64,000 nt of DNA from Escherichia coli 042 (lineage in GTDB: Bacteria > Pseudomonadota > Gammaproteobacteria > Enterobacterales > Enterobacteriaceae). A model generated the notes under the pieces. The model made no database searches. It was not told the origin of the DNA and worked only from the letters and a program-made list of their open reading frames with translations. Shown piece after piece: positions 22,591-37,502 of the stretch (positions within the stretch are counted from its first letter, which is position 1; each line of letters starts with the position of its first letter). The translations under genes and the position numbers were made by a program. The stretch lies in the NCBI RefSeq assembly GCF_000027125.1, contig NC_017626.1. The stretch is one strand, 5' to 3'.

Positions 22591-24093
22591 TTACCTTTTT
22601 CTCCCCCCCAGCAAACTCCCCAACATTCCACGCACAATCTGATTCGTCACCTGGCGGGCGGCGCTTTTCGCCATTGTTTGCACAACACCATCTTTCTTCC
22701 CGCCGCGTGGTCCGGTAGTGCCGAACAAAATATCCTTCAATCCACCAAGAATGCCGTCATCTACCGCTACCTCTTTCCCTTTCGCGGGGGGATTATTTTG
22801 CTGCTCGGTGCTTGCCTGTACGCCTTTTTGCAACATCTCATAGGCGGATTCCCGGTCCACGTCATCCTCGTACTTGCCATACACCGGAGAGTGATTAATC
22901 AAGCCATTACGCTCATCTTCCGTCACCGGTCCCATCCGCGAACAAGGCGCAATCACCATCGCCCGTTCCACCACAGAAGGACTTCCTTTTGCATCGAGAA
23001 ACGAGATTAACGCCTCGCCGGTCCCCAGTTCCTGGATTGCCTTTTCCGTATCAAATGCAGGGGTGGGGCGCATGGTTTGCGCCGCAGCTTTTACCGCTTT
23101 CTGATCTTTGGGCGTAAAAGCACGCAAAGCGTGTTGAACGCGATTACCGAGCTGGCCGAGCACATTATCTGGAATATCAGACGGGTTTTGCGAAACGAAC
23201 CAGACGCCCACGCCTTTTGAGCGAATAAGCCTTATCACCTGCTCAATCTTATCCAGCAGTACCTGCGGGGCATCGTTAAATAGCAGATGTGCCTCGTCGA
23301 AGAAAAACACCAGTTTTGGTTTCTCCAGATCGCCCGCTTCCGGCAATTGTGCATACAACTCTGAAAGCATCCACAGCAGGCTGGCGGCGTACAGTTTCGG
23401 CATCTGATAAAGCTTCTCGGCGCTGAGGATATTGATAACGCCTTTACCGTTGGCATCGGTGCGCATCCAGTCTTTGATATCCAGCATCGGCTCACCAAAG
23501 AAGTGTGCTGCGCCTTGCTGTTCCAGCGACAACAGCCCGCGCTGGATGGCACCAACCGATGCGCTACTGATATTTCCGTACTGATTCTGGAAGGATTTGG
23601 CGTTATCGCCGATGTACTGGGTAATTGCCCGCAGATCTTTAAAGTCGAGCAGTAACAGCCCCTGATCGTCAGCAATGCGGAAAATGATATCCAGCACGCC
23701 AGATTGCACATCGTTGAGATTCAACAGTCGCGCCAGCAACAGCGGTCCCAGATCCGAAACCGTCGCCCGCACCGGATGGCCTTTCTCGCCAAAGATATCC
23801 CACACCACCACCGGATTGGCATGCGGTTGCCAATCATTGACGCCGATATTTTTAAGCCTTGCGAGCAGTTTTTCCGACGCCGTTCCTGCCTGCGCGATAC
23901 CGGTCAGATCGCCTTTCACATCAGCCATAAACACCGGCACGCCGATTTCCGACAATGACTCTGCCAGTTTTTGCAGCGTAACGGTTTTACCCGTCCCCGT
24001 TGCGCCGGTAATCAGCCCGTGACGGTTCGCCATTCCCGGCAGTAAAAACAGTTCTGTGTCCGGCGTGCGGGCAATTAACAGGGGTTCGCTCAT
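22591..24093 (-). CDS. yjgR: P-loop ATPase, DUF853 (HerA/FtsK-like)
   Basis: Internal Met of track ORF 22591..24141 gives [18 protein letters not shown]... Walker A motif GATGTGKT is present. Confidence 0.9.
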
Positions 24094-24222
24094 GAGATTT
24101 CCTCCAGTTTCCTGCCTGGAGTATAGGCAACGGCTGCGCACTCTTCACCGCTAAATTCAGCAGATTGCGAGACGCCTTCCAAAGAGATTTAAGTGCCGGG
24201 CGACAGGCACCCGGCAAAGAGA

Positions 24223-25437: not shown

Positions 25438-25522
25438 GCCGAAGTGGCGAAATCGGTAGACGCAGTTGATTCAAAATCAACCGTAGAAATACGTGCCGGT
25501 TCGAGTCCGGCCTTCGGCACCA
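25438..25522 (+). tRNA. leuX: tRNA-Leu (anticodon CAA)
   Basis: GCCGAAGTGGCGAAATCGGTAGACGCAGTTGATTCAAAATCAACCGTAGAAATACGTGCCGGTTCGAGTCCGGCCTTCGGCACCA. It has a long variable arm, CAA at 25472-25474 and an encoded CCA end. Confidence 0.95.
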
Positions 25523-25721
25523 TCGGAACATCAATAGACGTCAACGGACGTCTTTTTTTGTGCCTGAAATCCAGTATCCGCAAGGCTTTCCTCGATTTTC
25601 CTTTCAACAGAAGTCAATCTGAGTCAACCCACATCAAGTCGCTTGTGAGTATAGAACCGAGTATATATGCTGGTTCGATAATGGTTGTATACTCACAGCG
25701 GCACATGGAAGGAGAACTTTT

Positions 25722-26975
25722 ATGGCTCTGACAGATATCAAAGTGCGTTCTGCAAAACCACAGGAAAAGGAGTATACCCTTGCCGATGGAGATGGCATGT
25801 TTTTGCTCATTCACCCTAACGGCTCAAAATACTGGCGGTTTCGCTTTCGCTTTGGTGGTAAGCAGCACCTGATGGCATTTGGGGTTTATCCTGAAACGTC
25901 ACTGGCTGATGCTCGTCAAAAAAGGGAAGAGGCCAGAAAACTTGTTGCTGCAGGCATCGATCCCCGTGAACACAAACGTGCAGTGAAAGAAGAGCAGACG
26001 AAAGAGGCTATTACCTTTGAGTCAGTTGCCAGAGAGTGGCACGCAGTAAATAAAAAATGGACAGAAGAACATAGCCGACGGGTGCTGAAGAGCCTGGAAG
26101 ATAATTTGTTCCCAGCAATTGGGAAGCGGAGTATTGATAGTTTTAGTACGCGCGATCTCCTTGTCCCTATCAAAGTAGTTGAGGCTACAGGGCGTCTTGA
26201 AGTGGCTTCGCGTCTTCAGCAGCGTACCAATGCGATTATGCGTTGTGCAGTGCAAAGCGGTTTGATCGATTACAATCCTGCTCAGGAGATGGCTGGGGCA
26301 GTTGCTTCAAGTAATCGTGTCCATCGACCAGCACTTGAACTGAAACGCTTACCTGAACTACTCCAGCGAATTGATAGCTACTCCGGACGACCTTTAACCC
26401 GTCTGGCTGTTGAGCTCACGTTATTAATCTTTATTCGTTCCAGTGAGTTGCGCTTTGCCCGTTGGCCAGAGATCGATTTTGAAAGGGCAATGTGGACAAT
26501 CCCGGCAGAACGAGAAGCTATTGAAGGAGTGAAGCATTCGGAACGTGGCTCGAAAATGCGTACTCCTCATTTAGTGCCGCTTTCTCGTCAGGCACTGGCA
26601 ATCCTTAAACAGGTTCATAAGCTTAGTGGCGAGCGCGATTTTGTTTTCGTTGGAGATCACAATCCTTGTAAACCGATGAGTGAAAATACAGTGAACAAGG
26701 CGCTGCGCGTGATGGGATATGACACTAAGATTGAGGTTTGCGGTCATGGCTTCAGGACCATGGCATGTAGCTCGTTGATTGAATCAGGGCTGTGGTCTAG
26801 GAACGCTGTTGAAAGGCAGATGAGCCATATGGAGCGTAACTCTGTACGTGCTGCTTACATTCATAAGGCTCAACACTTGGATGAGCGTAAAATGATGCTG
26901 CAGTGGTGGGCAGATTTTCTTGATGTAAATCGGGTGAAGGGCGTCAGCCCATTTGATTTTGCCAAGGAGAAATGA
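25722..26975 (+). CDS. P4-type tyrosine integrase (IntB/IntS family)
   Basis: 417-aa ORF 200 nt downstream of leuX. N-terminus MALTDIKVRSAKPQEKEYTLADGDGMFLLIHPNGSKYWRFRF is the DUF4102 arm-binding type. The C-terminal HGFR...Y catalytic region is present. Confidence 0.92.
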   Translation: MALTDIKVRSAKPQEKEYTLADGDGMFLLIHPNGSKYWRFRFRFGGKQHLMAFGVYPETSLADARQKREEARKLVAAGIDPREHKRAVKEEQTKEAITFESVAREWHAVNKKWTEEHSRRVLKSLEDNLFPAIGKRSIDSFSTRDLLVPIKVVEATGRLEVASRLQQRTNAIMRCAVQSGLIDYNPAQEMAGAVASSNRVHRPALELKRLPELLQRIDSYSGRPLTRLAVELTLLIFIRSSELRFARWPEIDFERAMWTIPAEREAIEGVKHSERGSKMRTPHLVPLSRQALAILKQVHKLSGERDFVFVGDHNPCKPMSENTVNKALRVMGYDTKIEVCGHGFRTMACSSLIESGLWSRNAVERQMSHMERNSVRAAYIHKAQHLDERKMMLQWWADFLDVNRVKGVSPFDFAKEK

Positions 26976-27243
26976 GCTATGGTAATGAGGTTATAGATAA
27001 GAGAGAATACTACTTTATCGCGGGTTTTTAGTGGCTGGCAGGTCTAGATGAGTAGAAAATTCAAGTAATCTACACTCACTCGACTTAAAGATGGGGCCTT
27101 TTAAAAGGTCCTGCTTTGATGCTTACTGGAATGATAACCGTCCTAATCGTTGGCGAGTTTGTTCCATAAGTCCTGAATCCATAGGTTTTCTCTCTCATTG
27201 ATATTAAGTAGCACCCATAAATTTTATTCAAGGATAAGAGATA

Positions 27244-29628
27244 ATGGCAAATTTTTCGGTAGCTGCGAGAACATTAATTCATTTAGGGGCGGAACTGATT
27301 ACCTCAGATGAAGTTGCTATAAATGAACTTGTTAAGAATGCTTTTGATGCCGAATCTAAACGGGTTAGGATAAATGTATTCATACCTATTTCGCATTCGT
27401 TAATAGATGACTGCCTTGCAATACTCGACAATAGTAAAAAAGAGGAAGCTCTTCAAGATGATATTTTTCATATAAAGAAAATGTTAATTGAAAGTGTTTC
27501 TGAACCTTCTATTGCAGCCCAAGTAGAAGAGTTGTTGCTAAACTTAACTTCAGATTCTAGCAAGGATGAAGCAAAAAAAATAGTCGAGTCGATAAACTAT
27601 ATAACAATCGAAGATTCTGGTTGTGGAATGGATTTAGCGACACTTGAAACGGTATTTTTGGCAATAGGCACTCCCTCTAAAGTAAACTCTGAAAGTACAA
27701 AAGACTTAAATAGAAAAATCCTAGGCAATAAAGGTATTGGACGTTTAGCAATGATGAGACTTGGGGATATTGCCAACGTTACATCTTGGGTTGAACAAGG
27801 TAGTGCCCATGAAATTGAATTCGACTGGCGAATGTTTGACGATCCTGAAAAAATAATCACCGATATTGAATTTGAAATAAAACCGACCACTTGTCCAAGG
27901 CCAACACCTTCAGGGACTGTAATAAAGATAACAGCACTTAAAAGCTCTTGGACTGAAGAAAAAGTTCGCGAAAAGCTCGTGGGTGATTTTTTTAGAAGGT
28001 TACAAAACCCATTTGTGATGTCATTGGATGAAGGTAGCTCCGATAACACAAAAAAAAATAAAAAGAATAGAACTGTAGGCTTTCCAATAGATGTTCATAT
28101 TAATGGAGGAACTCGAATACCTATCGAAGGTATGAAGAAAGTGTTAACAGATTTAGTTCAGGCTGATATGGAGCTCTGGTTTGACCCAAACGGGATTGGT
28201 GATACACCTGAAGTTATTCTCCGTACGAGTTTGACTGACTACCAACGTGGAAATGAACCTGAAAATACTAATAGAACAATAGAAGAAGTAACACATGTTT
28301 TAAATGTTAATTTTGAAGCACTTAAGAAAATTGGCCCCGTAAGAGCTACTATTAGATGGTTTAATAGAGAACGGTTACGCCAGCAAGCTACTTTGCATGG
28401 TAACTGGAAAGCAGCGAAGGCCGAATTAGATTTATGGTGTGGAGGAATAGCAATATATCGAGATGGTTTTCGCATTGGATTTTCTGGACAATCAACCGGC
28501 GAAGACTGGCTGGGACTAGATAGTTCTGCTCTTAAGAGAGGAGGTTTTGCTGTAAACCGTATTCAGACTGTCGGTGCGTTAGAGATTTCAAGAAAAGAAA
28601 ATCCCGGTTTGGTTGATAGATCTAATAGAGAAGGATTGATTGAATCACCAGAATCCAATCTTGTAAGAGATATGCTGTCGAAATTTGCTATTGATGAACT
28701 TCGTCGCTACATCGGTCATGAAGGGCAAGAAGAGAAGAAAGCACGTCTAAATGATATAGTTGAAAGCGCTCCTGCAACTATACGCGCTCGGATACTGCAA
28801 GCTGAGCAAGGACTCACATCTATAAGGTCTAAGGTTCCCGCAGATGTTCAAGAATCAGTACAATCAATCGCAAATAATTTACACTTTATAAAAAATGAAG
28901 TAACTCGTTTTGAAGAGGCTAGCAAACTAGCAACAGAGAGACGTGAGGATATTCTTGAACTTGCTGGTGTTGGAACCGTAATGTCTGGTGTACTACATGA
29001 GCTCACTAGGACAACAGGCCACACTCGACAGCTGTTACAAAAGTTATCTAAAGATGAGTCTCCTGGTACTAAAGCTTTATTAACGAAGCTAGATTCGGAA
29101 ATTAAAGCGATCAATACGCGACTTCGACAGTTAGATCCTTTAACACCTTCTGGAAGGCATCGCAAAGAAATATTTAATTTGTCAGCATTGCTGAATACTA
29201 TATTAGAAGGGTATGGAGCTCGCTTTGAACGGCATAATATAATTCCAGAATTCAAAATCTCTGGAGTTGATGATACTCAACCTGTCGAAGTAAATATGGT
29301 ACGTGGTTTTGTTAGCCTTGCAATTGAGAATTTAATTACAAACTCGGTTTATTGGGTTCAGCAGGGGGGGAGAAGTGATCGTCGTATTACTTTAGAACTA
29401 GATGCAGAATCTAGGACATTAACTTTGCGTGATAATGGGCCAGGTATTTCTCCTGCAGATAAAGACAGAATTTTCACTGCAGGATTTACAATGCGACCTA
29501 AAGGGCAGGGTTTGGGTCTTTTCATTGCAGCTGAAGTGGCTACCTATCATGATGCGAGGCTTTTGTTGGACTCTGCTGATGAGGATGGCCGATATAGAGG
29601 TTTTGTCTTGGAGCTTCCAAAGGAATGA
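27244..29628 (+). CDS. Cytoplasmic dual-GHKL protein: N-terminal MORC/Hsp90-like ATPase plus C-terminal histidine-kinase-like module
   Basis: 794-aa ORF. N-terminal Bergerat motifs are E28-LVKN32-AFDA, D124-SGCG128 and G161-NKGIGRLA. The C-terminus has an H-box-like SGVLH585ELTRTTG, an N-box ENLITN700SVYW, G1 D730-NGPGI and G2 GQGLGL. I see no obvious TM segment. Confidence 0.6.
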   Translation: MANFSVAARTLIHLGAELITSDEVAINELVKNAFDAESKRVRINVFIPISHSLIDDCLAILDNSKKEEALQDDIFHIKKMLIESVSEPSIAAQVEELLLNLTSDSSKDEAKKIVESINYITIEDSGCGMDLATLETVFLAIGTPSKVNSESTKDLNRKILGNKGIGRLAMMRLGDIANVTSWVEQGSAHEIEFDWRMFDDPEKIITDIEFEIKPTTCPRPTPSGTVIKITALKSSWTEEKVREKLVGDFFRRLQNPFVMSLDEGSSDNTKKNKKNRTVGFPIDVHINGGTRIPIEGMKKVLTDLVQADMELWFDPNGIGDTPEVILRTSLTDYQRGNEPENTNRTIEEVTHVLNVNFEALKKIGPVRATIRWFNRERLRQQATLHGNWKAAKAELDLWCGGIAIYRDGFRIGFSGQSTGEDWLGLDSSALKRGGFAVNRIQTVGALEISRKENPGLVDRSNREGLIESPESNLVRDMLSKFAIDELRRYIGHEGQEEKKARLNDIVESAPATIRARILQAEQGLTSIRSKVPADVQESVQSIANNLHFIKNEVTRFEEASKLATERREDILELAGVGTVMSGVLHELTRTTGHTRQLLQKLSKDESPGTKALLTKLDSEIKAINTRLRQLDPLTPSGRHRKEIFNLSALLNTILEGYGARFERHNIIPEFKISGVDDTQPVEVNMVRGFVSLAIENLITNSVYWVQQGGRSDRRITLELDAESRTLTLRDNGPGISPADKDRIFTAGFTMRPKGQGLGLFIAAEVATYHDARLLLDSADEDGRYRGFVLELPKE

Positions 29629-31475
29629 TTATGGATATTCAAAAGTCATTTACTGAATCAAAAATTTTAAAAGTAGCGATCGTTGACGACGATTTGTCCG
29701 ATTTAATTACTATGGACGATCTGAATACTATAGACAAGGATATTGCCAGTTTGCTTGGTGATCCATCCGATCCTGATTGTGAAAGTTACCATGAACTACT
29801 AGCATCTGAAGGCTATGATCTTGACGAAATAGAAGATCTTGCTCAACCTCTTTCAAATAAATCAATTAGAGAAAAAGCTCCTGAGCGTCTAAAAAATGCG
29901 GCAAATAAAATTATCGAATTTCGTTATGATAACGCCAAGCCAATTAGACGTGTTAAACAATTACTACTGGAAGCTGGCATTTTAGAGGATAATATTCATT
30001 ATTATTTTAGCCCTGAAATACCTAATGAAGAGTTTTATGATCTTTTAGTGATAGATTACTTCTTGGTAAAAAATTCCTCCAAGCATACTTTACCTTTTAT
30101 CAAAAAAATACTCTCAACTCATGAAAAGGCACCAAAGCCTTTACAAGTTATTCTGATGTCGACTTATGAGGCAGAGTTAAAAGCAGAATTCAGGAATATT
30201 CGTCCCGAGATAAGAACTTCAAGCTCAAGAATGAGAATCATGAGCAAACCAATGTCTGATGATGATTTAGTATACTGGCGCTCTGCTTTGTTCCAGTTAT
30301 CTTCAGATCGACAATTTGTCGATGCAGTAGAAAAATTTGTTACTGAAACAATAAGTGGTTTTCAACATGCTGCACAAGAACAAGCTAAAAGATTATGGGA
30401 GCTTGATCTTCAGGCAATGGATATTCTCCATGAAGCTGCAACATCTGATAATGATGATTTTTGCCGCTATGTTGAAGAATGTCTAAGTAGACAATTATTA
30501 ACGGCTCTAGAAGAATGCTCTGGTATAAGAAAATCATTAGGTGTTTTAGGTGAATCATTAATAAAACATAGAGCTAACAACGTAATTGCGCCTGTTACTG
30601 AAATTGGTGATTCGAGGGCGGCAATTAGAACACTAATGAGGAGTATGGAATGGCGTGGGGGAAATACCCCTAGCATGACAGAGTTTAAAGACCCTAAAGA
30701 CAGAGCAAAGTGGATTCAGAAAAATCTGAGATTTGGAATGGTACTAAAATCACCAGATGATAAAAGATGGCTTAATTTAACTCAAGCGTGTGATCTTGCA
30801 CAAACAAAAGAGGATAATTTAAATTCGGTATCTCTCTTGCTTATTAGTGGTTCCTATGCTCGGCCAGTTGGACGTGAGAATGGGCAATCATTAGTGTATT
30901 TGAACACATCATTATCTGATGCAGGTAGTGAGGTTTTGTGTTGGGATGTACGTAATGTTCAAACGCCCTCAATATTTGATTTTGCTCAAACGTTTTATAA
31001 TGGCTGGTCAATTACTGGAGAGCTTCGTCTAGACCAGGCTCAAAGTATAGCTGCTTTATATAGTTCTCGAACTTTAAGGGTTGGTCTTCAAAAAAGGCTA
31101 AGTAGCTGGTGTCTTGATGGTAAAGCTTTATTCATAAACAAATTAAATAACAGCGCTCCAAGTGATAAAATCGAGGGTACGACTATTTCTGGTCATGCGA
31201 TGAATCGTGGTAAACCCGACGAAGTACATATCGATAAAGATAGCATGATAAAGCTTCAAAGAGATTTTCCTAATAGTATTAATAAAATATCTCTGAAATT
31301 ATATATGGGAATGCAGCTAAAGCCTGGTTCAAAAAACCAAGAAGAAGGTATTTTGATTTATTGTGCTGAAAAGCCGGAGAATATAGAATCACTTCGTAGG
31401 GCTATTAATGATAATGATTTTTTAAATCGTGATGTTAATCAAAATAAAGTGGTAATAGCTCTATGGCATAAGTGA
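29625..31475 (+). CDS. Divergent receiver(REC)-like N-terminus fused to an unknown ~400-aa C-terminal domain
   Basis: 616-aa ORF. Its ATG overlaps the upstream stop (ATGA), and an alternative ATG at 29631 has better AAGGA spacing. REC-like landmarks are LKVAIVD21D22D23, YDLLVID144YFL, LQVILMS179T180 and IMSK208P. I recognise no output-domain motif. Confidence 0.5.
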   Translation: MIMDIQKSFTESKILKVAIVDDDLSDLITMDDLNTIDKDIASLLGDPSDPDCESYHELLASEGYDLDEIEDLAQPLSNKSIREKAPERLKNAANKIIEFRYDNAKPIRRVKQLLLEAGILEDNIHYYFSPEIPNEEFYDLLVIDYFLVKNSSKHTLPFIKKILSTHEKAPKPLQVILMSTYEAELKAEFRNIRPEIRTSSSRMRIMSKPMSDDDLVYWRSALFQLSSDRQFVDAVEKFVTETISGFQHAAQEQAKRLWELDLQAMDILHEAATSDNDDFCRYVEECLSRQLLTALEECSGIRKSLGVLGESLIKHRANNVIAPVTEIGDSRAAIRTLMRSMEWRGGNTPSMTEFKDPKDRAKWIQKNLRFGMVLKSPDDKRWLNLTQACDLAQTKEDNLNSVSLLLISGSYARPVGRENGQSLVYLNTSLSDAGSEVLCWDVRNVQTPSIFDFAQTFYNGWSITGELRLDQAQSIAALYSSRTLRVGLQKRLSSWCLDGKALFINKLNNSAPSDKIEGTTISGHAMNRGKPDEVHIDKDSMIKLQRDFPNSINKISLKLYMGMQLKPGSKNQEEGILIYCAEKPENIESLRRAINDNDFLNRDVNQNKVVIALWHK

Positions 31476-31513
31476 TTTGATTTATTGCTAATTTATCAGG
31501 TGTATTATTTTCT

Positions 31514-31550
31514 CAATGTGAGCTAATTATTTCTTTATTAGCTCACATTG
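31514..31550. terminator. Perfect 14-bp-stem hairpin between the two convergent operons
   Basis: CAATGTGAGCTAAT (31514-31527), a 9-nt loop, then ATTAGCTCACATTG (31537-31550), with AT-rich flanks on both sides. Confidence 0.6.
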
Positions 31551-31623
31551 ATATCCATTTATGTTAAATGATAAGGGGAAATTGTACTATAAAATATAGA
31601 CCAGATTAATTTACCCCTTCTTT

Positions 31624-32463
31624 TTATTTATGGCAAATTGCGCATGAGCCTCCGCCTTCATCTTCCCCATAAATTTCATCAATATCAATGAGAGTCTCAC
31701 CAGGGCGTAGTGGGTTAATGATTTTTTTCGCTTTGAGTCTGGCTTGCCGCTTTTCAAAATCAGTGACAATTTGAGCAATTCTTTCAGGCTCCTCAAGTGA
31801 CTCTAGTGATTCACCTTTAGTCCAAGTAAAGGGAGAACCATGTTCAATTGCATTTTTTTCATATCGTTTAGCTTCTTCAAATGCCTCTGGGTGACGCTCT
31901 TTTAATCTTACCCACTCAATCTTTTGTTGGAAGAAGCAAAAAGTACAGCCGCTACGTGATCGCCATTCATAATATTTTGGAAGACCAACTCCTGATGAGT
32001 CAAGAATATCCATAACACCTTTCCGATCTATTCCGGCATCTCTAAATGGTAAACTAATAGTTAAATTTGCATTTTTCGAACTATATCCTTCACGGTAATC
32101 TTCGTCTGCTCTTATTGCTACATAGCTTGTAACTTTATCACCAGCATTAAGCATCGGACGAACCCACTGTTCGAAGGGCGCGAGTTTTAACTGACGAGTA
32201 CACCAACGAGTCTGCGGCGAGGGTAGAAAATGATTATATTCACGTAACCAGAAATCAAAACCACGTCTAGGGTTTAGTCTGGCAATTGGTTTGCCTAAAA
32301 ATCCTTCTAATCGCCCCAAAAACTCATAGACTTCAGGTAATTCTTTACCTGTATCAGTAAAGAAATAGTCGATATCTAACTCGGGGCGTGTCTGGCGCAT
32401 GAAAACAGCAAGTGCAGCACTGTCTTTACCCCCAGAAATACCAAGTACATGCTTTTCAGTCAT
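31624..32463 (-). CDS. sspD: PP-loop ATP pyrophosphatase, PAPS-reductase-like (SspD/DndC-like)
   Basis: Track ORF 31624..32481. The Met at 32463 has a GAGG Shine-Dalgarno and gives MTEKHVLGISGGKDSAALAVFM (SGGKDS PP-loop). C-terminal cysteines are CTFCFF and CAICHK. Confidence 0.7.
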   Translation of the reverse strand: MTEKHVLGISGGKDSAALAVFMRQTRPELDIDYFFTDTGKELPEVYEFLGRLEGFLGKPIARLNPRRGFDFWLREYNHFLPSPQTRWCTRQLKLAPFEQWVRPMLNAGDKVTSYVAIRADEDYREGYSSKNANLTISLPFRDAGIDRKGVMDILDSSGVGLPKYYEWRSRSGCTFCFFQQKIEWVRLKERHPEAFEEAKRYEKNAIEHGSPFTWTKGESLESLEEPERIAQIVTDFEKRQARLKAKKIINPLRPGETLIDIDEIYGEDEGGGSCAICHK

Positions 32464-35400
32464 TCTTAACCTCAACATCATGCTGAGCGATTTTAATACA
32501 AGCTTTACCTAATGCAGCCATTATAATATCTGGGTTTAATCCTTTTCCAGATAATGTTCTAATTAACTCACCGGCGAGGTTGTCAATCTGATGGTTGAAT
32601 TGCTCAGGTATACTGAATTCGTGTTTGAATGTTTTCATTTCTGAACCAGCTCCAATAACCACTGCAAATGCCTCGCTTGATGGTTTTCGTCCTTGGATCG
32701 ATACTAATGCTTCGGATTGGCGAAACCGCAGTGCAAAATTGGCTATTTCCATAAGTGCTAAATCAATATCTCGATCATTCCAGTCTCTTGGAGGCTTGTT
32801 TGCAGCTAGGCTGAGTATACCTTCTATAGAATAATGACTACCATCGTACGTAGCTAAACGTGTTGAAAAGGCATCTTGCCGAAGTTCGCCAGTGATACCG
32901 GATAACGTTTCAGCACGTTTTCGTAGTGTAGATAAGTCATCTTTATTAGCATTCAGAGCTTTTAGCATTCTTGATGCAAATTGGTCTAAGAGTTTGTCAT
33001 AGGCACTCCAAAGTTCTTTTACTGGAGCCTGTAATGCATCAACATAATTTTTCCCACTTTCTACATTTAGAGCCGCGGCTAAATCAATAAATAAAACTTT
33101 ATGAGGATCGCTAGCTTTTAATAGTGTATCTCGTACCTTCTTCGCATTAGATGAAAGTCTCGCCGTCCTTTGTGTCCAATTTGGGAGTCCAACAATCATG
33201 GCAACTAGACTTCTGGCAGCTTCTAACGGTTCAGCTGAATTAGACATGAGACCAATAGAATCAAGAAGTTTACCAATTCCTACTAGAATCTTTTGTTTTT
33301 CATCATCAATTACAATCCACCGCAAGGAAAAACGTTTTTCATCCTGCAAGTATTCATCAATATCTGCATCAGTAAAAGTAGGAATAAATAATCCATCTTT
33401 ATAAATAGCAATATTACTTTTAGATGCCAGAAGGAAGGCCATAAATATTATCGGTATAACACCTTTTTTTAAACCAAATGGAGGTTTAGCCCAAAGGGTA
33501 TGAATATCAGATACTGATATCATTTGATTTTTATTTTTAATGAAATCATGCGTTTTCTTCCAAAGACCATAAAACGACGAATGCTTGTCGCTGACCGCAG
33601 GAAGAAAATGATAATACCCATCATGATGCTTCGCATACAAGCCGGTACGATGGAGAATCGTTTCATATAGGCCGCGTGAGGCAGGATATCCCTCAATTCC
33701 AAGATGGAGTTCACCCTCATTTTCTAGCATTCGATATAACAATTCTTTCCTGGCTTTTACGCTATTGCTGGATAAATTATCACGATTAACTAATTCACTC
33801 CATAACCTTGGAGCTTTGTAGTAAATATTATCTGCAAGAGAGGATGCAATTGATGATAAAGTACCTTTAGGTTCCGCCTGAGCAGAATCTATACACCATT
33901 CCGCAGTCGCTAATGCCTCTGCTAACTGTTCTTCTAATGTTGATTGCGTTGCACTTATCCTTGCTTGGACTTCTCTTCGTGCAACAGCATCACCTTGTAA
34001 TTCATGTCCACGTTTAGTTTGGACTATTTGAAGTGCTAGGAGTTCGGCACCTAAATCTTCTATGCGCAGGTAGTTATGTGGAATCCCGGCAACAATGGGC
34101 CATGGCTTTGAACGAGAAGCATCAGCACAAATTATTTTAGCTTGTTCTTCATTTACATTTCTTTCAGGAAGTGCCAGAAGAAATAATCCAAACTCTCCGT
34201 TACGTGGCTGGAACTCTTCTGAATATTTTTTTACCTCGTTAAGGTGACAAAGTGCAATATTCATCCAGCGAAAAGTACCAGTTTGATGGTAATGCCTTTT
34301 TGCAATTACAGGATAAAGATTAGCAATTTTATTCAGTTGACTAAAATCTGTTCCAAGCATGGTTGCACGTGATTGTGCAACGGCTTGGTCAATATTAAAA
34401 TCACTTCCTTCAAAAACAGACCATGCCCCGGTATGTTTTTTGAATATGATAACACGCCATTTAGAAAGATCTTCGAGTGCGGATCTAATATTTTCAATAG
34501 AAGTATTCAAGAATAATGATTCTAGTATGCTTGTTTCAGCGGTCAATCCTGAACCATCTTTGAAAAGGTCAAGTATTGCAATACATTTAATTAAATCAAT
34601 ATGCAATATATTATCAGATTTTGCCTCCGCACGTTCTACAGCGTCTACCGCTTGTGCCCAACGATGTCCATCATTAGAGGCCAAAATTAATTGTTCAAGA
34701 TTTGCTCTTAAGTAATCGAAATAGTTTGAGGGAAGATACCAAGTAGCCTCTTCAAATGTGGTTAGATTGAGATAGTTTTGAAACCCGAAAGGTTCAGAGG
34801 ACGAGAGAAAACCAAAAGTTGAACGCTCGTTCTGTCCAAACTGACGTTTTGATATAGGTCCTAATAAAGCAGCCATTACCGGGTGTAAAGGCCAACACTT
34901 GGATAATGCATAATCATATTGCTTTCCAACCATTGGGCGTCGATCATAAATAGCATCCGCGACTACTTGCGCTACTTTTTGAGTGTATTTGGGTCTTTTT
35001 TTAACATCTAACGCTTTACCTATAAGTTCAACAACTTCATCACTCCCTGCAACTAAGGGAATATCAGCATAACGGCCTTGGATTTTAGTCCACTCTTCAC
35101 GAGTTTCAAGTCCAAGTCGAACAGCATATTGTCCAAAAGATTGATGTAATATACCTAAGATAATGACTTTACCATTTGTACGTGCTGCAGATTCAGCAAG
35201 CTCTTGGTAAAAATAAATATCATCGCCATTTCCTAAAGCTGATGCTTCAAGGAACTTACCTAGCTCGTCAATGATAAGCAAGGTACCATCTAACTTCGCT
35301 TCATCTGCAGCACTGCATATGTGTTTAATAAGTAATGATGCTGATTTTTTATAATCTTTATCACTACCACAAACATTATTCAGAGTTTGCGAAATTTGTT

Positions 35401-35788
35401 GGATTATGCTACCTCTGCGGCCAATAACTGGAAGTATTAACCATCCTTTTTTAACTTGGAATGCTTTATCAAAATCACTTTGTGAATCGACATTTAACAA
35501 TGACCTTGCTTTTTCACGTAGAGCTTTGTTAGGTGATAATGAACTTGCAAGAACTAACGCTAATGATGATTTCCCACTTCCATACGGACCAGTCCATGTG
35601 AAAGCTCGCTGTTGGCTATTCAGAACCTGCTTGGACATGTTTTCAAGAACGCTTTGTGCCGTGCCATTGCATACATATCCATCAAGCGCATCTTCGCGGC
35701 CAAGATCAGCATCAATACGGATGGAACGTTGGTATTGTCTCGCAATGCGAACCTGTTCTGAAAGAAGGTTTTTATTATGTTTAGTCAT
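32456..35788 (-). CDS. sspC: Large P-loop ATPase (DUF499/BrxC-like; SspC-like)
   Basis: Track ORF 32456..35800 starts at a TTG; the ATG is at 35788. Walker A is GPYGSGKSS and Walker B is LLIIDELGK. The ~1110-aa size fits DUF499-type ATPases. Confidence 0.65.
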   Translation of the reverse strand: MTKHNKNLLSEQVRIARQYQRSIRIDADLGREDALDGYVCNGTAQSVLENMSKQVLNSQQRAFTWTGPYGSGKSSLALVLASSLSPNKALREKARSLLNVDSQSDFDKAFQVKKGWLILPVIGRRGSIIQQISQTLNNVCGSDKDYKKSASLLIKHICSAADEAKLDGTLLIIDELGKFLEASALGNGDDIYFYQELAESAARTNGKVIILGILHQSFGQYAVRLGLETREEWTKIQGRYADIPLVAGSDEVVELIGKALDVKKRPKYTQKVAQVVADAIYDRRPMVGKQYDYALSKCWPLHPVMAALLGPISKRQFGQNERSTFGFLSSSEPFGFQNYLNLTTFEEATWYLPSNYFDYLRANLEQLILASNDGHRWAQAVDAVERAEAKSDNILHIDLIKCIAILDLFKDGSGLTAETSILESLFLNTSIENIRSALEDLSKWRVIIFKKHTGAWSVFEGSDFNIDQAVAQSRATMLGTDFSQLNKIANLYPVIAKRHYHQTGTFRWMNIALCHLNEVKKYSEEFQPRNGEFGLFLLALPERNVNEEQAKIICADASRSKPWPIVAGIPHNYLRIEDLGAELLALQIVQTKRGHELQGDAVARREVQARISATQSTLEEQLAEALATAEWCIDSAQAEPKGTLSSIASSLADNIYYKAPRLWSELVNRDNLSSNSVKARKELLYRMLENEGELHLGIEGYPASRGLYETILHRTGLYAKHHDGYYHFLPAVSDKHSSFYGLWKKTHDFIKNKNQMISVSDIHTLWAKPPFGLKKGVIPIIFMAFLLASKSNIAIYKDGLFIPTFTDADIDEYLQDEKRFSLRWIVIDDEKQKILVGIGKLLDSIGLMSNSAEPLEAARSLVAMIVGLPNWTQRTARLSSNAKKVRDTLLKASDPHKVLFIDLAAALNVESGKNYVDALQAPVKELWSAYDKLLDQFASRMLKALNANKDDLSTLRKRAETLSGITGELRQDAFSTRLATYDGSHYSIEGILSLAANKPPRDWNDRDIDLALMEIANFALRFRQSEALVSIQGRKPSSEAFAVVIGAGSEMKTFKHEFSIPEQFNHQIDNLAGELIRTLSGKGLNPDIIMAALGKACIKIAQHDVEVKND

Positions 35789-36671
35789 AAGCCTTTCCAA
35801 GCATGTTCAATTTAATTACTTCTGTTTCTGATGTTTTACGATGAACCTGGCGTAAACCAGCTGTATCAGTCCATATAAATGAACCTTCAGTTAACTCTTC
35901 TAATGCGAATAATCGTTCTGCAATAGAGTCTTCATCGAGCTTAAATACTCTACCCGGAGAACCGTCCCCATATGCAATTGTTTCGAAGGATAATGAGCTG
36001 AGATTTAGGGCCTTACGCTCCCAATAATCGATCAGAGCATAAGCAAATACACCATCAGACAAAGTAATCTTTGGACCTCGACGAAATGAAAAGTGTCCTT
36101 TTTTTTCTTCAGCTAGTAAACCTAATTCACCAAGCATAGGTTCGGCAAAGTCTTCAGGAGTGGTTCCACTCGACCGCGGTGCATAACTACGCAAACATGT
36201 CTCAATATCTCGAGAAAGTGTCATTGGTGATAGTTTTCTCCCAGGACAACATTGCGTAGCATAGTCAGCTAAAAGAGCCCGGAGGTCTTCTTGTGTAAAA
36301 GATGAAGAAACAACATGGTTAAATAACCAGTACCAAGTTGTCGAGCGTTCTCCTTTTCCTGAAAGCTTCCAATGGCTAAGCCATGCTGTCGAGGGATGCT
36401 CTGAATAAGGATCAAGCCCATGTTCGCTAAATATTTTAATAGCAAATTCTGTAAGTTTGAATTTACCATCCTCTTCTCGCATTACTTCACAGGCGAGTGC
36501 CCAATGCTTGATTGATGCGACCATGTTTTTGCCTACACCAAATTTGGCAATGGCCTCATCATTCGAAAAAACCGATTTGTCAATAGAACCATCCGGCGCT
36601 GCATAACTGCAGGTTTTTTTTAACCACATTTGTCTTAGTGGGAAGGTCTCGTGACCTGAAAAGTGAGCCAT
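35781..36671 (-). CDS. sspB: DUF4007-family protein (SspB-like)
   Basis: 296-aa ORF. The N-terminus MAHFSGHETFPLRQMWLKK matches my recollection of the DUF4007 signature. It is the first gene of the three-gene overlapping operon. Confidence 0.65.
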   Translation of the reverse strand: MAHFSGHETFPLRQMWLKKTCSYAAPDGSIDKSVFSNDEAIAKFGVGKNMVASIKHWALACEVMREEDGKFKLTEFAIKIFSEHGLDPYSEHPSTAWLSHWKLSGKGERSTTWYWLFNHVVSSSFTQEDLRALLADYATQCCPGRKLSPMTLSRDIETCLRSYAPRSSGTTPEDFAEPMLGELGLLAEEKKGHFSFRRGPKITLSDGVFAYALIDYWERKALNLSSLSFETIAYGDGSPGRVFKLDEDSIAERLFALEELTEGSFIWTDTAGLRQVHRKTSETEVIKLNMLGKAYD

Positions 36672-37502
36672 GACTTATCCTAATGCGATAACAACTTTGT
36701 ATAAGCTGATTGTACAGGAACTGGAGAGTTTCACCAGTGGCGGCTTTTGGACATCATTGGGGTGGCGTAGCGGTTTTTTTTTTATTTTTTTCGTTAAAAT
36801 ACATATTGTTAATTGTTTTTTATTGCGGAGGGGAACTGTCTATATCTTCTCATGCATCGGGATTTTTAACAGGCCTGAGCTGGCATGTTCTACCGTTTCA
36901 CACAGAAAGGAACAGTTAGTTTCAAACGGATACTTATCAATCAGTGGTGTGAGAAATGCTAAGAGTGGGAAACGCACTTAATTTTATGATTTCTTAGTGA
37001 CCAGTTTTTAACCATGAGCTAATCTTAAAATCTGATTTTTATCAATGAGTTAATGTTGATGTACTATGCGGCAATGAATGAAGTGTATTGCCATTCCGAA
37101 TTTTTGCTCATTTTTTAGCCATTTCCATACTTTTTTGCGTGAATATTTTATGAACAATGTTCCTTTCATAACTTATCTGTCTCAAATGATACGTTTGGAG
37201 TTTACAATTACTAAATATTTAATGTAAGTGGGAACAGCTATTTTTTGTTCATATTAGCTCCCAGCAGCAAAAGATGATGTAATTCATCCGGTGCAGAGAT
37301 AATATAGGAATGGATAATCTGGAGAGCGACTCTGCAGGCTGATATTGCGGTTTTGCGGCAAGTTTTTGGCATCCGCTTCTACGCCAAATACCTGAAGTAG
37401 GAATGGATGCGTTAGCAGCATACATCCGGATCTGCGCGGGGAATAGCCGGAAACGGCTATCCCTACCACAATAGCTAACTTTGTAATAGTGCCCTTTTAG
37501 GC

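Follow-up and report, generated by a model that had tools for sequence, protein, structure and literature searches.

A gene pair in Escherichia coli 042 raises the question of what kind of output a receiver-type protein might control when its gene lies between a histidine kinase-like gene and a set of DNA-modification genes. The pair is located in a 64,000-nucleotide stretch of contig NC_017626.1 (RefSeq assembly GCF_000027125.1), called the window below, and encodes a 794-amino-acid kinase-like (HK-like) protein followed by a 616-amino-acid response regulator-like (RR-like) protein that ends in an output region of approximately 400 residues. An earlier reading made from the DNA letters alone (the sequence-only reading) had proposed, by analogy with Detocs, that this output region is a toxic effector. 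We find that the pair is accompanied by phosphorothioate (PT) modification genes in every relative whose flanks are informative, and that the output region is predicted to contain a toxin fold. The interpretation that we favor, with about even confidence, is that the pair serves Ssp PT defense as a third kind of effector, gated by a phosphorelay, beside SspE and SspFGH; the role in defense is a prediction.

The Gene Pair Is Linked to Ssp Modification Genes

The most informative fact about the pair is that the convergent sspBCD genes are adjacent to it. The genes concerned are listed here, each with its position in the window.

27244 to 29628, plus strand: HK-like partner gene, 794 amino acids; paraMORC-type GHKL ATPase, middle block, DHp domain with an H585-E-L H-box, and histidine-kinase catalytic domain.

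29625 to 31475, plus strand: RR-like gene, 616 amino acids from the ATG at 29625 or 614 amino acids from the ATG at 29631; stop codon at 31473 to 31475.

31624 to 32481, minus strand: sspD (PAPS-reductase-like), PT modification module; PADLOC SspD, E = 1.4e-140.

32456 to 35800, minus strand: sspC (ATPase), PT modification module; PADLOC SspC, E = 0, 1451 bits.

35781 to 36671, minus strand: sspB (DUF4007), PT modification module; PADLOC SspB, E = 6.9e-115, and Pfam DUF4007, E = 4.8e-90.

Full-length homologues of the RR-like protein (∼615 to 625 amino acids) occur in Pectobacterium (ECA2877), Pantoea, Yersinia, Pseudomonas, Xanthomonas and Dokdonella, and a further clade at 30% identity has a receiver protein of about 697 to 699 amino acids. 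Named cluster members, all annotated as ‘hypothetical’, add Aeromonas, Gilliamella, Novosphingobium, Sphingobium and a Rhizorhabdus plasmid. Gene context was sampled from seven species genomes (L002 to L008), Pectobacterium, the 699-amino-acid clade, profile representatives with E values from 1e-65 to 6e-5, and the Polaromonas plasmid pPNAP02. This sample comprises 17 relatives with informative flanks; two further contigs are too short to judge.

In all 17 of these relatives, as in the window, genes for SspB, SspC and SspD, often with sspA, directly adjoin the pair, and the kinase-like gene lies directly 5′ of the receiver gene, with a 2-nucleotide gap or a 4-nucleotide overlap between the two. 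The relative orientation of the ssp genes and the pair varies: they can be convergent, as in the window, or the ssp genes can lie upstream on the same strand, or downstream. The 699-amino-acid clade carries a single-strand cluster in the order sspB-C-D-A-HK-RR. Several relatives have an Aminotran_5 gene inside the cluster (L013, L016, L023 and L026). No methyltransferase gene adjoins the pair in any sampled locus, and the modification module there is sspBCD. Thus, the kinase/receiver pair is strictly linked to Ssp modification genes in the relatives examined. The pair also occurs in several mobile settings, which include an island at leuX with an integrase, an integrative and conjugative element (ICE) with type IV secretion system genes, plasmids, and a locus beside a relaxase gene.

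The Output Region Is Predicted to Contain a MazF-Type Fold

The sequence-only reading recognized no motif in residues ∼215 to 616. For sequence libraries this description holds, since searches of Pfam, NCBIfam, PADLOC and PDB sequences with residues 212 to 616, both as a single query and as a profile, returned nothing, but it does not hold for the fold. A separate structural model of the output region, built on 74 sequences and with a predicted local distance difference test (pLDDT) score of 91.2, consists of a long connector helix, a helical bundle and two alpha/beta subdomains, and includes the small beta-barrel-plus-helix fold that is typical of the MazF/PemK/CcdB superfamily. When this model was compared with the PDB by Foldseek, the top 50 matches were all MazF structures, with E. 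coli MazF the best (E = 4.8e-4, probability 1.00, template modeling (TM) score of 0.70 per target). A second, independent fold search also returned the MazF/Kid/CcdB-type toxin fold, with coiled-coil noise making up the rest of its matches, and the best fold matches of the region are toxins, abortive-infection RNases among them. These comparisons predict that the output region of the receiver protein contains a MazF-type toxin fold, and they lend model-based support to the earlier guess that the C-terminus is a candidate toxic effector. No match of the C-terminus to a known non-defense output domain was found in these searches. The region can be divided as follows, with residue numbers that refer throughout to the 616-amino-acid version of the protein (subtract 2 for the likely protein).

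30258 to 30650, plus strand: connector helix (residues 212 to 257) and helical bundle (to ∼342), from the secondary structure of the models; D261 and E296 are conserved in the family.

30693 to 31094, plus strand: probable MazF/Kid/CcdB-like toxin-fold subdomain, residues ∼357 to 490; G371, T386, C389, D390, R468 and R485 are conserved in the family.

31095 to 31472, plus strand: terminal alpha/beta subdomain, residues ∼491 to 616, the most variable part of the family.

The toxin fold was placed at residues ∼357 to 490, with boundaries that follow the order of secondary-structure elements and not a residue alignment. Three observations agree with this location: the prediction there is confident (ten-residue blocks have pLDDT values of 80 to 96), this part is retained in the most distant relatives, and it carries the conserved G371, T386, C389, D390, R468 and R485. 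The connector and bundle gave no informative fold match, only coiled-coil noise.

A profile of the C-terminal 405 residues was also searched against 1.84 billion representative proteins, yielding 123 matches. The weakest of these align over profile positions ∼160 to 300 only, and many distant relatives cease to align past position ∼300. All full-length matches are proteins of 585 to 736 amino acids in which the match begins near residue 204 to 290. Given this uniformity, the domain is not found behind a different N-terminal module among the 123 matches. Such a fixed receiver-plus-output architecture fits what might be expected of a receiver-gated effector.

More specific sequence resemblances and one nuclease reading were considered and set aside. 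A local match between ‘LRLDQAQSIA’ and MazF ‘ALADQVKSIA’ falls short of significance (E = 0.38) and was not relied on. The likeness by eye of ‘LRFGMVL’ and ‘NLTQ’ to MazF ‘HRPAVVL’ and ‘PCTTQ’ was dismissed because R369 is not kept in the wider family. A reading of the C-terminus as a PD-(D/E)xK nuclease was rejected for its lack of a conserved Lys.

A Receiver Domain with an Acidic Insertion

Upstream of the output region, the protein carries a receiver domain into which a long helical segment is inserted.

29661 to 30257, plus strand: receiver (REC) domain, residues ∼13 to 211; the candidate phospho-acceptor is D144 (codon 30054 to 30056), and the other landmarks are D21/D22, S179 and K208.

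29694 to 29990, plus strand: acidic helical insertion, residues ∼24 to 122, between receiver strands 1 and 2; aligned across all homologues.

The residues that the sequence-only reading had picked out as receiver landmarks (D21-D22-D23, D144, S179-T180 and K208-P209) are all present at the positions it gave. Over 93 relatives, D21 and D144 are conserved in 100%, D22 and K208 in 98% and S179 in 93%; the mean column identity of a MAFFT alignment of 90 of these relatives is 17%. The landmarks are conserved far beyond chance. An AlphaFold2 model of the RR-like protein, built on 47 homologues (pLDDT of 85.8), has a (beta-alpha)5 receiver fold, with the landmarks located at the C-terminal ends of strands 1 (residues 17 to 20), 3 (140 to 144), 4 (174 to 179) and 5 (203 to 207). 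Structure prediction, the check put forward in the sequence-only reading, thus produced a model with the receiver fold and with the landmark acids at strand ends rather than one that lacks them. The protein has no PF00072 (Response_reg) match at E ≤ 0.01. Conservation and the model together indicate that the 616-amino-acid protein has a genuine receiver domain, and phosphorylation of D144 by the cognate kinase is predicted.

The spacing from D22 to D144 is 122 residues; the corresponding distance in CheY is about 44 residues. In the model, strand 1 is followed by helices over residues 30 to 116 and then by strand 2 (124 to 127), and strands 2 and 3 lack the helix that normally lies between them. 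Across 47 homologues, the median net charge of residues 40 to 75 of the insertion is −6. The helices and the conserved negative charge bear out the large acidic insertion that had been suspected from the sequence.

A MORC-Like ATPase Precedes the Kinase Core

The HK-like protein matches the Pfam models HATPase_c_3 (E = 1.4e-15), HATPase_c (E = 4.5e-18) and, below threshold, HEF_HK (E = 1.3e-3). Judged by these domains and their motifs, it is a GHKL ATPase of the MORC/MutL type, in the position usually taken by a sensor, followed by a complete histidine-kinase core. In 17 orthologues from Ssp-linked loci, the N-terminal GHKL motifs (E28/N32/D35, D124xGxG and GxKGxGR) are conserved, as are the H-box H585-E-L (H585 is codon 28996 to 28998) and the N, G1 and G2 boxes, such that both ATP sites and the His motif are intact. 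The middle region, residues 400 to 463, is also strongly conserved in the 17 orthologues and includes the block GGIAIYRDGFRIG (residues 400 to 412). The arrangement of HATPase_c_3, DHp and HATPase_c next to a receiver gene is present in the window and in the relatives.

The GHKL domain (residues ∼20 to 260; window 27244 to 28100) resembles the ATPase part of BbrUII/HgiDII type II restriction enzymes, with a match to NCBIfam restrict_BbrUII (E = 7e-19) over residues 116 to 260 and to PADLOC REase_II (E = 5e-12). The BbrUII similarity is confined to the ATPase part (profile positions 47 to 197 of 659; 68 bits versus a cut-off of 550), and no nuclease domain was detected in the protein with Pfam. 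ParaMORC and BbrUII-HgiDII GHKL proteins are components of restriction-modification (R-M) systems (Iyer et al. 2008, PMC2292703). The kinase-like protein shares with them the GHKL motifs of its N-terminal half, the middle block and DNA-modification gene neighbors. Unlike them, it carries a complete histidine-kinase core in the same polypeptide, is paired with a receiver protein, and has no detectable nuclease domain.

Gene Start and Transcription Unit

The open reading frame (ORF) at 29625 to 31475 had been described as coupled to the kinase-like gene by either an ATGA overlap or a 2-nucleotide gap, and both geometries exist: the ATG at 29625 overlaps the kinase stop codon at 29625 to 29628, and a start at 29631 leaves a 2-nucleotide gap after that stop codon and shifts residue numbers by −2. 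The ATG at 29631 is more likely to be the start, because homologues begin there, RefSeq uses it, and the sequence AAGGA sits 6 nucleotides upstream. The product is 100% identical to a 614-amino-acid E. coli ‘hypothetical protein’ (P0001; RefSeq WP_000354454.1, strain CV839-06). Downstream, one further feature lies between the RR-like gene and sspD.

31513 to 31551, no strand assigned: perfect 15-base-pair inverted repeat with a 9-nucleotide loop, inside the 148-base-pair gap between the convergent RR-like gene and sspD.

This hairpin is probably a bidirectional transcription terminator for the two convergent units; a scan for consensus terminators did not list it.

A Possible Phosphorelay-Gated Toxin and Its Alternatives

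In the reading that we favor, the GHKL module of the kinase would read the state of DNA, distinguishing PT-marked self from an unmarked invader or detecting failed modification. This would switch the kinase, and a phosphoryl group would pass from H585 to D144. Phosphorylation would then free the MazF-like domain, which would serve as a toxin, most likely a sequence-specific endoribonuclease, and phage replication or the infected cell would be stopped. In MazEF, the acidic tail of MazE covers the toxin groove of MazF; more speculatively, the acidic receiver insertion could mask the groove of the output domain in a similar manner. The favored reading is supported by the minimal E. coli island, which carries the pair and sspBCD and neither SspE nor SspFGH.

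Several points weigh against this proposal. The toxin fold rests on predicted structure, and no PemK/MazF or CcdB Pfam match was found at E ≤ 1 in 10 family members. An hhalign comparison of residues 357 to 490 with a small MazF alignment gave a probability below 1% and no signal; that alignment comprised E. coli MazF, checked against the PDB, together with Kid and the Bacillus and Staphylococcus MazF sequences. The catalytic Arg and Thr of MazF do not obviously align under a topology-based mapping, and any correspondence of the conserved T386, R468 and R485 to MazF catalytic residues is that of candidates in a model. Moreover, the pair contains no recognizable DNA nuclease, unlike known PT restriction modules. 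Finally, on the Polaromonas naphthalenivorans plasmid pPNAP02 (L024, 1 to 15866), the pair is directly preceded by sspG and sspH (PADLOC E = 2e-134 and 0) and followed by convergent sspDCB, so that two candidate Ssp effector modules reside in one locus. This co-occurrence with SspG/SspH, seen in at least one locus, raises the possibility that the pair acts as an accessory or a regulator and not as a stand-alone effector. The co-occurrence fits either such an accessory role or an additive second effector, and an additive effect has been reported for SspE with SspFGH (PMC8092258).

The Polaromonas locus, with its complete SspG/SspH restriction module, is among the observations that favor a different reading, in which the pair is a regulator or checkpoint of the Ssp machinery. 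The MazF-like fold would then be a noncatalytic module for binding single-stranded nucleic acid or for protein interaction, and the pair would adjust either the activity or the expression of SspBCD, or else link PT status with the physiology of the cell. Control of R-M systems by such pairs has been speculated by the authors who described them (PMC8011034), epigenetic roles have been proposed for solitary PT systems (PMC8092258), and no counterparts of the MazF catalytic residues could be assigned in the output domain, which also lacks sequence similarity to MazF. We nonetheless consider a regulator unlikely. No helix-turn-helix or other DNA-binding output domain was detected, and the best fold matches are specifically toxins, abortive-infection RNases included. 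The invariant polar residues T386, C389, D390, R468 and R485 resemble an active site and not a binding surface. In addition, the minimal island of E. coli and Pectobacterium would, under this reading, be modification-only cargo with an elaborate regulator.

The toxin-antitoxin-type fold of the output domain also invites an explanation as an addiction or guard module that kills or arrests cells when the island is lost or when something, for instance a phage anti-PT protein, blocks their Ssp modification. Such a module would stabilize the mobile element or serve as a back-up abortive-infection layer, with no direct discrimination of DNA. It would suit a pair that rides on mobile elements (the leuX island, the ICE, plasmids and the relaxase-adjacent locus), and one that lacks a separate antitoxin gene; the acidic insertion of its receiver might imitate the acidic tail of MazE. 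Between the window island and the sampled relatives, there is no conserved small neighboring gene that could encode a cognate antitoxin. We regard this explanation as improbable: a sensor of the paraMORC DNA type points to DNA being read directly. Most predictions of the guard module are common to it and the favored reading, and the two are not cleanly separable by sequence. A last alternative, which we consider very improbable, places the DNA-targeting activity in the kinase-like protein, whose N-terminal half is BbrUII/HgiDII-like and MORC clamp-like, and makes the receiver protein an adaptor. In its favor are the restrict_BbrUII and REase_II matches, the conserved middle block at residues 400 to 463 and the R-M membership of paraMORCs (PMC2292703). 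Against it are a similarity limited to the GHKL ATPase part, the lack of a detected nuclease domain, and the conserved ∼400-residue output of the receiver protein, which would be left without an explanation together with its invariant polar residues.

We return to the favored reading, of a phosphorelay-gated effector. A stronger form of it holds that paraMORC-HK/receiver-MazF pairs are a third class of PT-immunity effector, in which a phosphorelay, and not a nuclease complex, turns PT status into the activation of an RNase-type toxin. This form is tentative, and we place it somewhat short of even confidence.

Relation to Known Systems

A kinase/receiver pair of this kind has been described computationally by Bellieny-Rabelo et al. 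in 2021 as HEF_HK (PF19191) and Response_reg_2 (PF19192) (PMC8011034). That study reported 91.6% gene linkage of the pair, the receiver landmarks, loop extensions and the HATPase_c_3, HEF_HK and HATPase_c architecture, together with an enrichment of R-M genes nearby, especially C5-methyltransferases, Vsr and HNH. It found no domain in the C-terminus of the receiver protein and gave neither a fold nor a function. Supplementary tables aside, its text does not mention Ssp, Dnd, PAPS reductase or DUF4007. The window pair resembles the published one in having two genes, a kinase with HATPase_c_3, DHp and HATPase_c, a following receiver of ∼620 amino acids with extended loops, soluble proteins, and DNA-modification genes nearby. 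It differs in its partner, which is always sspBCD(A) and not C5-methyltransferases, Vsr or HNH. The pair scores below the Pfam gathering cut-offs (22.0 versus 27 bits for PF19192 and 19.6 versus 24.1 bits for PF19191), and only 3 of 72 family members match PF19192 at E ≤ 1e-3. By these scores, the Ssp-linked family is a distant relative that is largely missed by current models; two homologues (P0064 and P0072) carry a precomputed PF19192 match.

Full-text literature searches, which included a 2024 reappraisal of PT systems (PMC10853773), found no paper that links the pair to Ssp. The strict Ssp linkage of the pair and the toxin fold of its output domain appear to be unreported in the literature searched. 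A module beside an SspE-less Ssp system in Acinetobacter baumannii global clone 2 (PMC12421847) might belong to the same family; a second word-indexed search for homologues, made with a broad profile, recovered nearly the same set of proteins as before and no Acinetobacter sequences.

The sequence-only reading had drawn its analogy with Detocs, a defense phosphorelay made up of the kinase DtcA, the buffer receiver DtcB and the receiver-effector DtcC, with the effector carried on the receiver protein. The general logic of an effector domain carried by the receiver protein is the same as that proposed here. The window pair differs in its paraMORC GHKL sensor, its MazF-like fold and its coupling to a DNA-modification module. 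Neither protein has a PADLOC match to Detocs, the ORF list of the locus contains two genes with no buffer-receiver gene as a third, and the output domain has no match in Pfam, whether to PNP or to any other model. We therefore reject membership in Detocs. What stands of the earlier reading is the receiver assignment, the tight coupling to a kinase-like gene and, on computational grounds, the guess of an effector; this type of pair had already been published (PMC8011034).

Among Ssp systems, a survey of 2,678 sspBCD loci found that 83.9% lack SspE and SspFGH, and proposed restriction partners that are as yet unknown (Wang et al. 2021, PMC8092258). The loci described here share with SspABCD-SspE and SspABCD-SspFGH the sspBCD genes, a neighboring non-modification module that varies between loci, and travel on islands. 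Where those systems have a DUF262/HNH nickase or a complex with an FtsK-like translocase, the loci here have a kinase/receiver pair whose output is predicted to contain an RNase-toxin-like fold. The output domain is likewise distinct from MazF, Kid (PemK), CcdB and type III toxins (ToxN/CptN/AbiQ), to which it has 5 to 14% identity and no profile similarity. MazF-type toxins are stand-alone dimers of ∼110 amino acids, whereas the window domain is embedded in a 616-amino-acid multidomain protein with no antitoxin gene, and its conserved T386, C389, D390, R468 and R485 are specific to the family.

The E. coli Island and Neighboring Genes

The pair and sspBCD are carried by an island of ∼11.5 kilobases (window 25438 to 37400), inserted at a tRNA-Leu(CAA) gene, that holds only these genes and an integrase. 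Its ends are marked by the following features.

25438 to 25522, plus strand: tRNA-Leu(CAA) (leuX), left end of the island.

25722 to 26975, plus strand: P4-type integrase, left end of the island.

About 37268 to 37375: IS110 remnant (RefSeq annotation), right end of the island.

The GC content of the island is 0.36 to 0.41, versus 0.52 to 0.55 in the flanks, and no direct repeat of 14 nucleotides or more was found as an attachment site. The island occurs in 9 of 5426 complete E. coli genomes, and a near-identical layout is present in Pectobacterium, with 76% protein identity. PADLOC found no match to SspE, SspF, SspG or SspH for the pair or for its neighbors in the E. coli island. The island carries sspBCD without the cysteine desulfurase gene sspA; IscS can stand in for SspA in other SspBCD systems (PMC8092258), and the housekeeping IscS presumably supplies this function here. 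Between the start of sspB and a core LacI-family regulator lie ∼830 base pairs (36672 to 37500) that contain only ORFs of at most 103 amino acids and the IS110 fragment. In this segment, the right end of the island has probably decayed.

Beside the integration site at leuX, the core gene yjgR (22591 to 24141, minus strand) encodes a HerA-like C-terminal domain (Pfam, E = 9e-253) and matches the PADLOC ‘mad8’ and HerA defense models (E = 2e-19). Since yjgR is a conserved chromosomal gene, defense-finder tools could wrongly flag it.

Further observations concern the loci of relatives. In the 699-amino-acid clade (L013/L014, 2154 to 5480), gene calls split sspC into two ORFs of 503 and 600 amino acids, and all the genes of sspB-C-D-A and the pair share a strand, where neighbors overlap or are separated by short gaps. 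One contig (L023) has at its edge a gene for a 1736-amino-acid FtsK_SpoIIIE/DUF87 protein that may be SspH. A 305-amino-acid HEPN-domain protein is encoded just upstream of the pair in two metagenomic contigs (L026, 4533 to 5450; L027, 185 to 1102), and a 749-amino-acid protein that has no PADLOC match is encoded just downstream of the pair in another locus (L017, 10188 to 12437). These HEPN and 749-amino-acid proteins may be further effectors of the same islands.

Significance for PT Immunity

If the favored reading is true, the pair would fill part of the gap left by the ∼84% of sspBCD loci that have no known restriction partner (PMC8092258), and a phosphorelay that feeds a MazF-like toxin would be a mechanistically new way to couple a DNA mark to immunity. 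It would also give a first function to a widespread family of ‘hypothetical proteins’ in Enterobacterales, Pseudomonas, Xanthomonadales, Aeromonas, Gilliamella, sphingomonads and Polaromonas, and a first biological context for a bacterial MORC-like ATPase that feeds a histidine kinase. The E. coli island, with its two genes and sspBCD, is a ready-made test system for this proposal.

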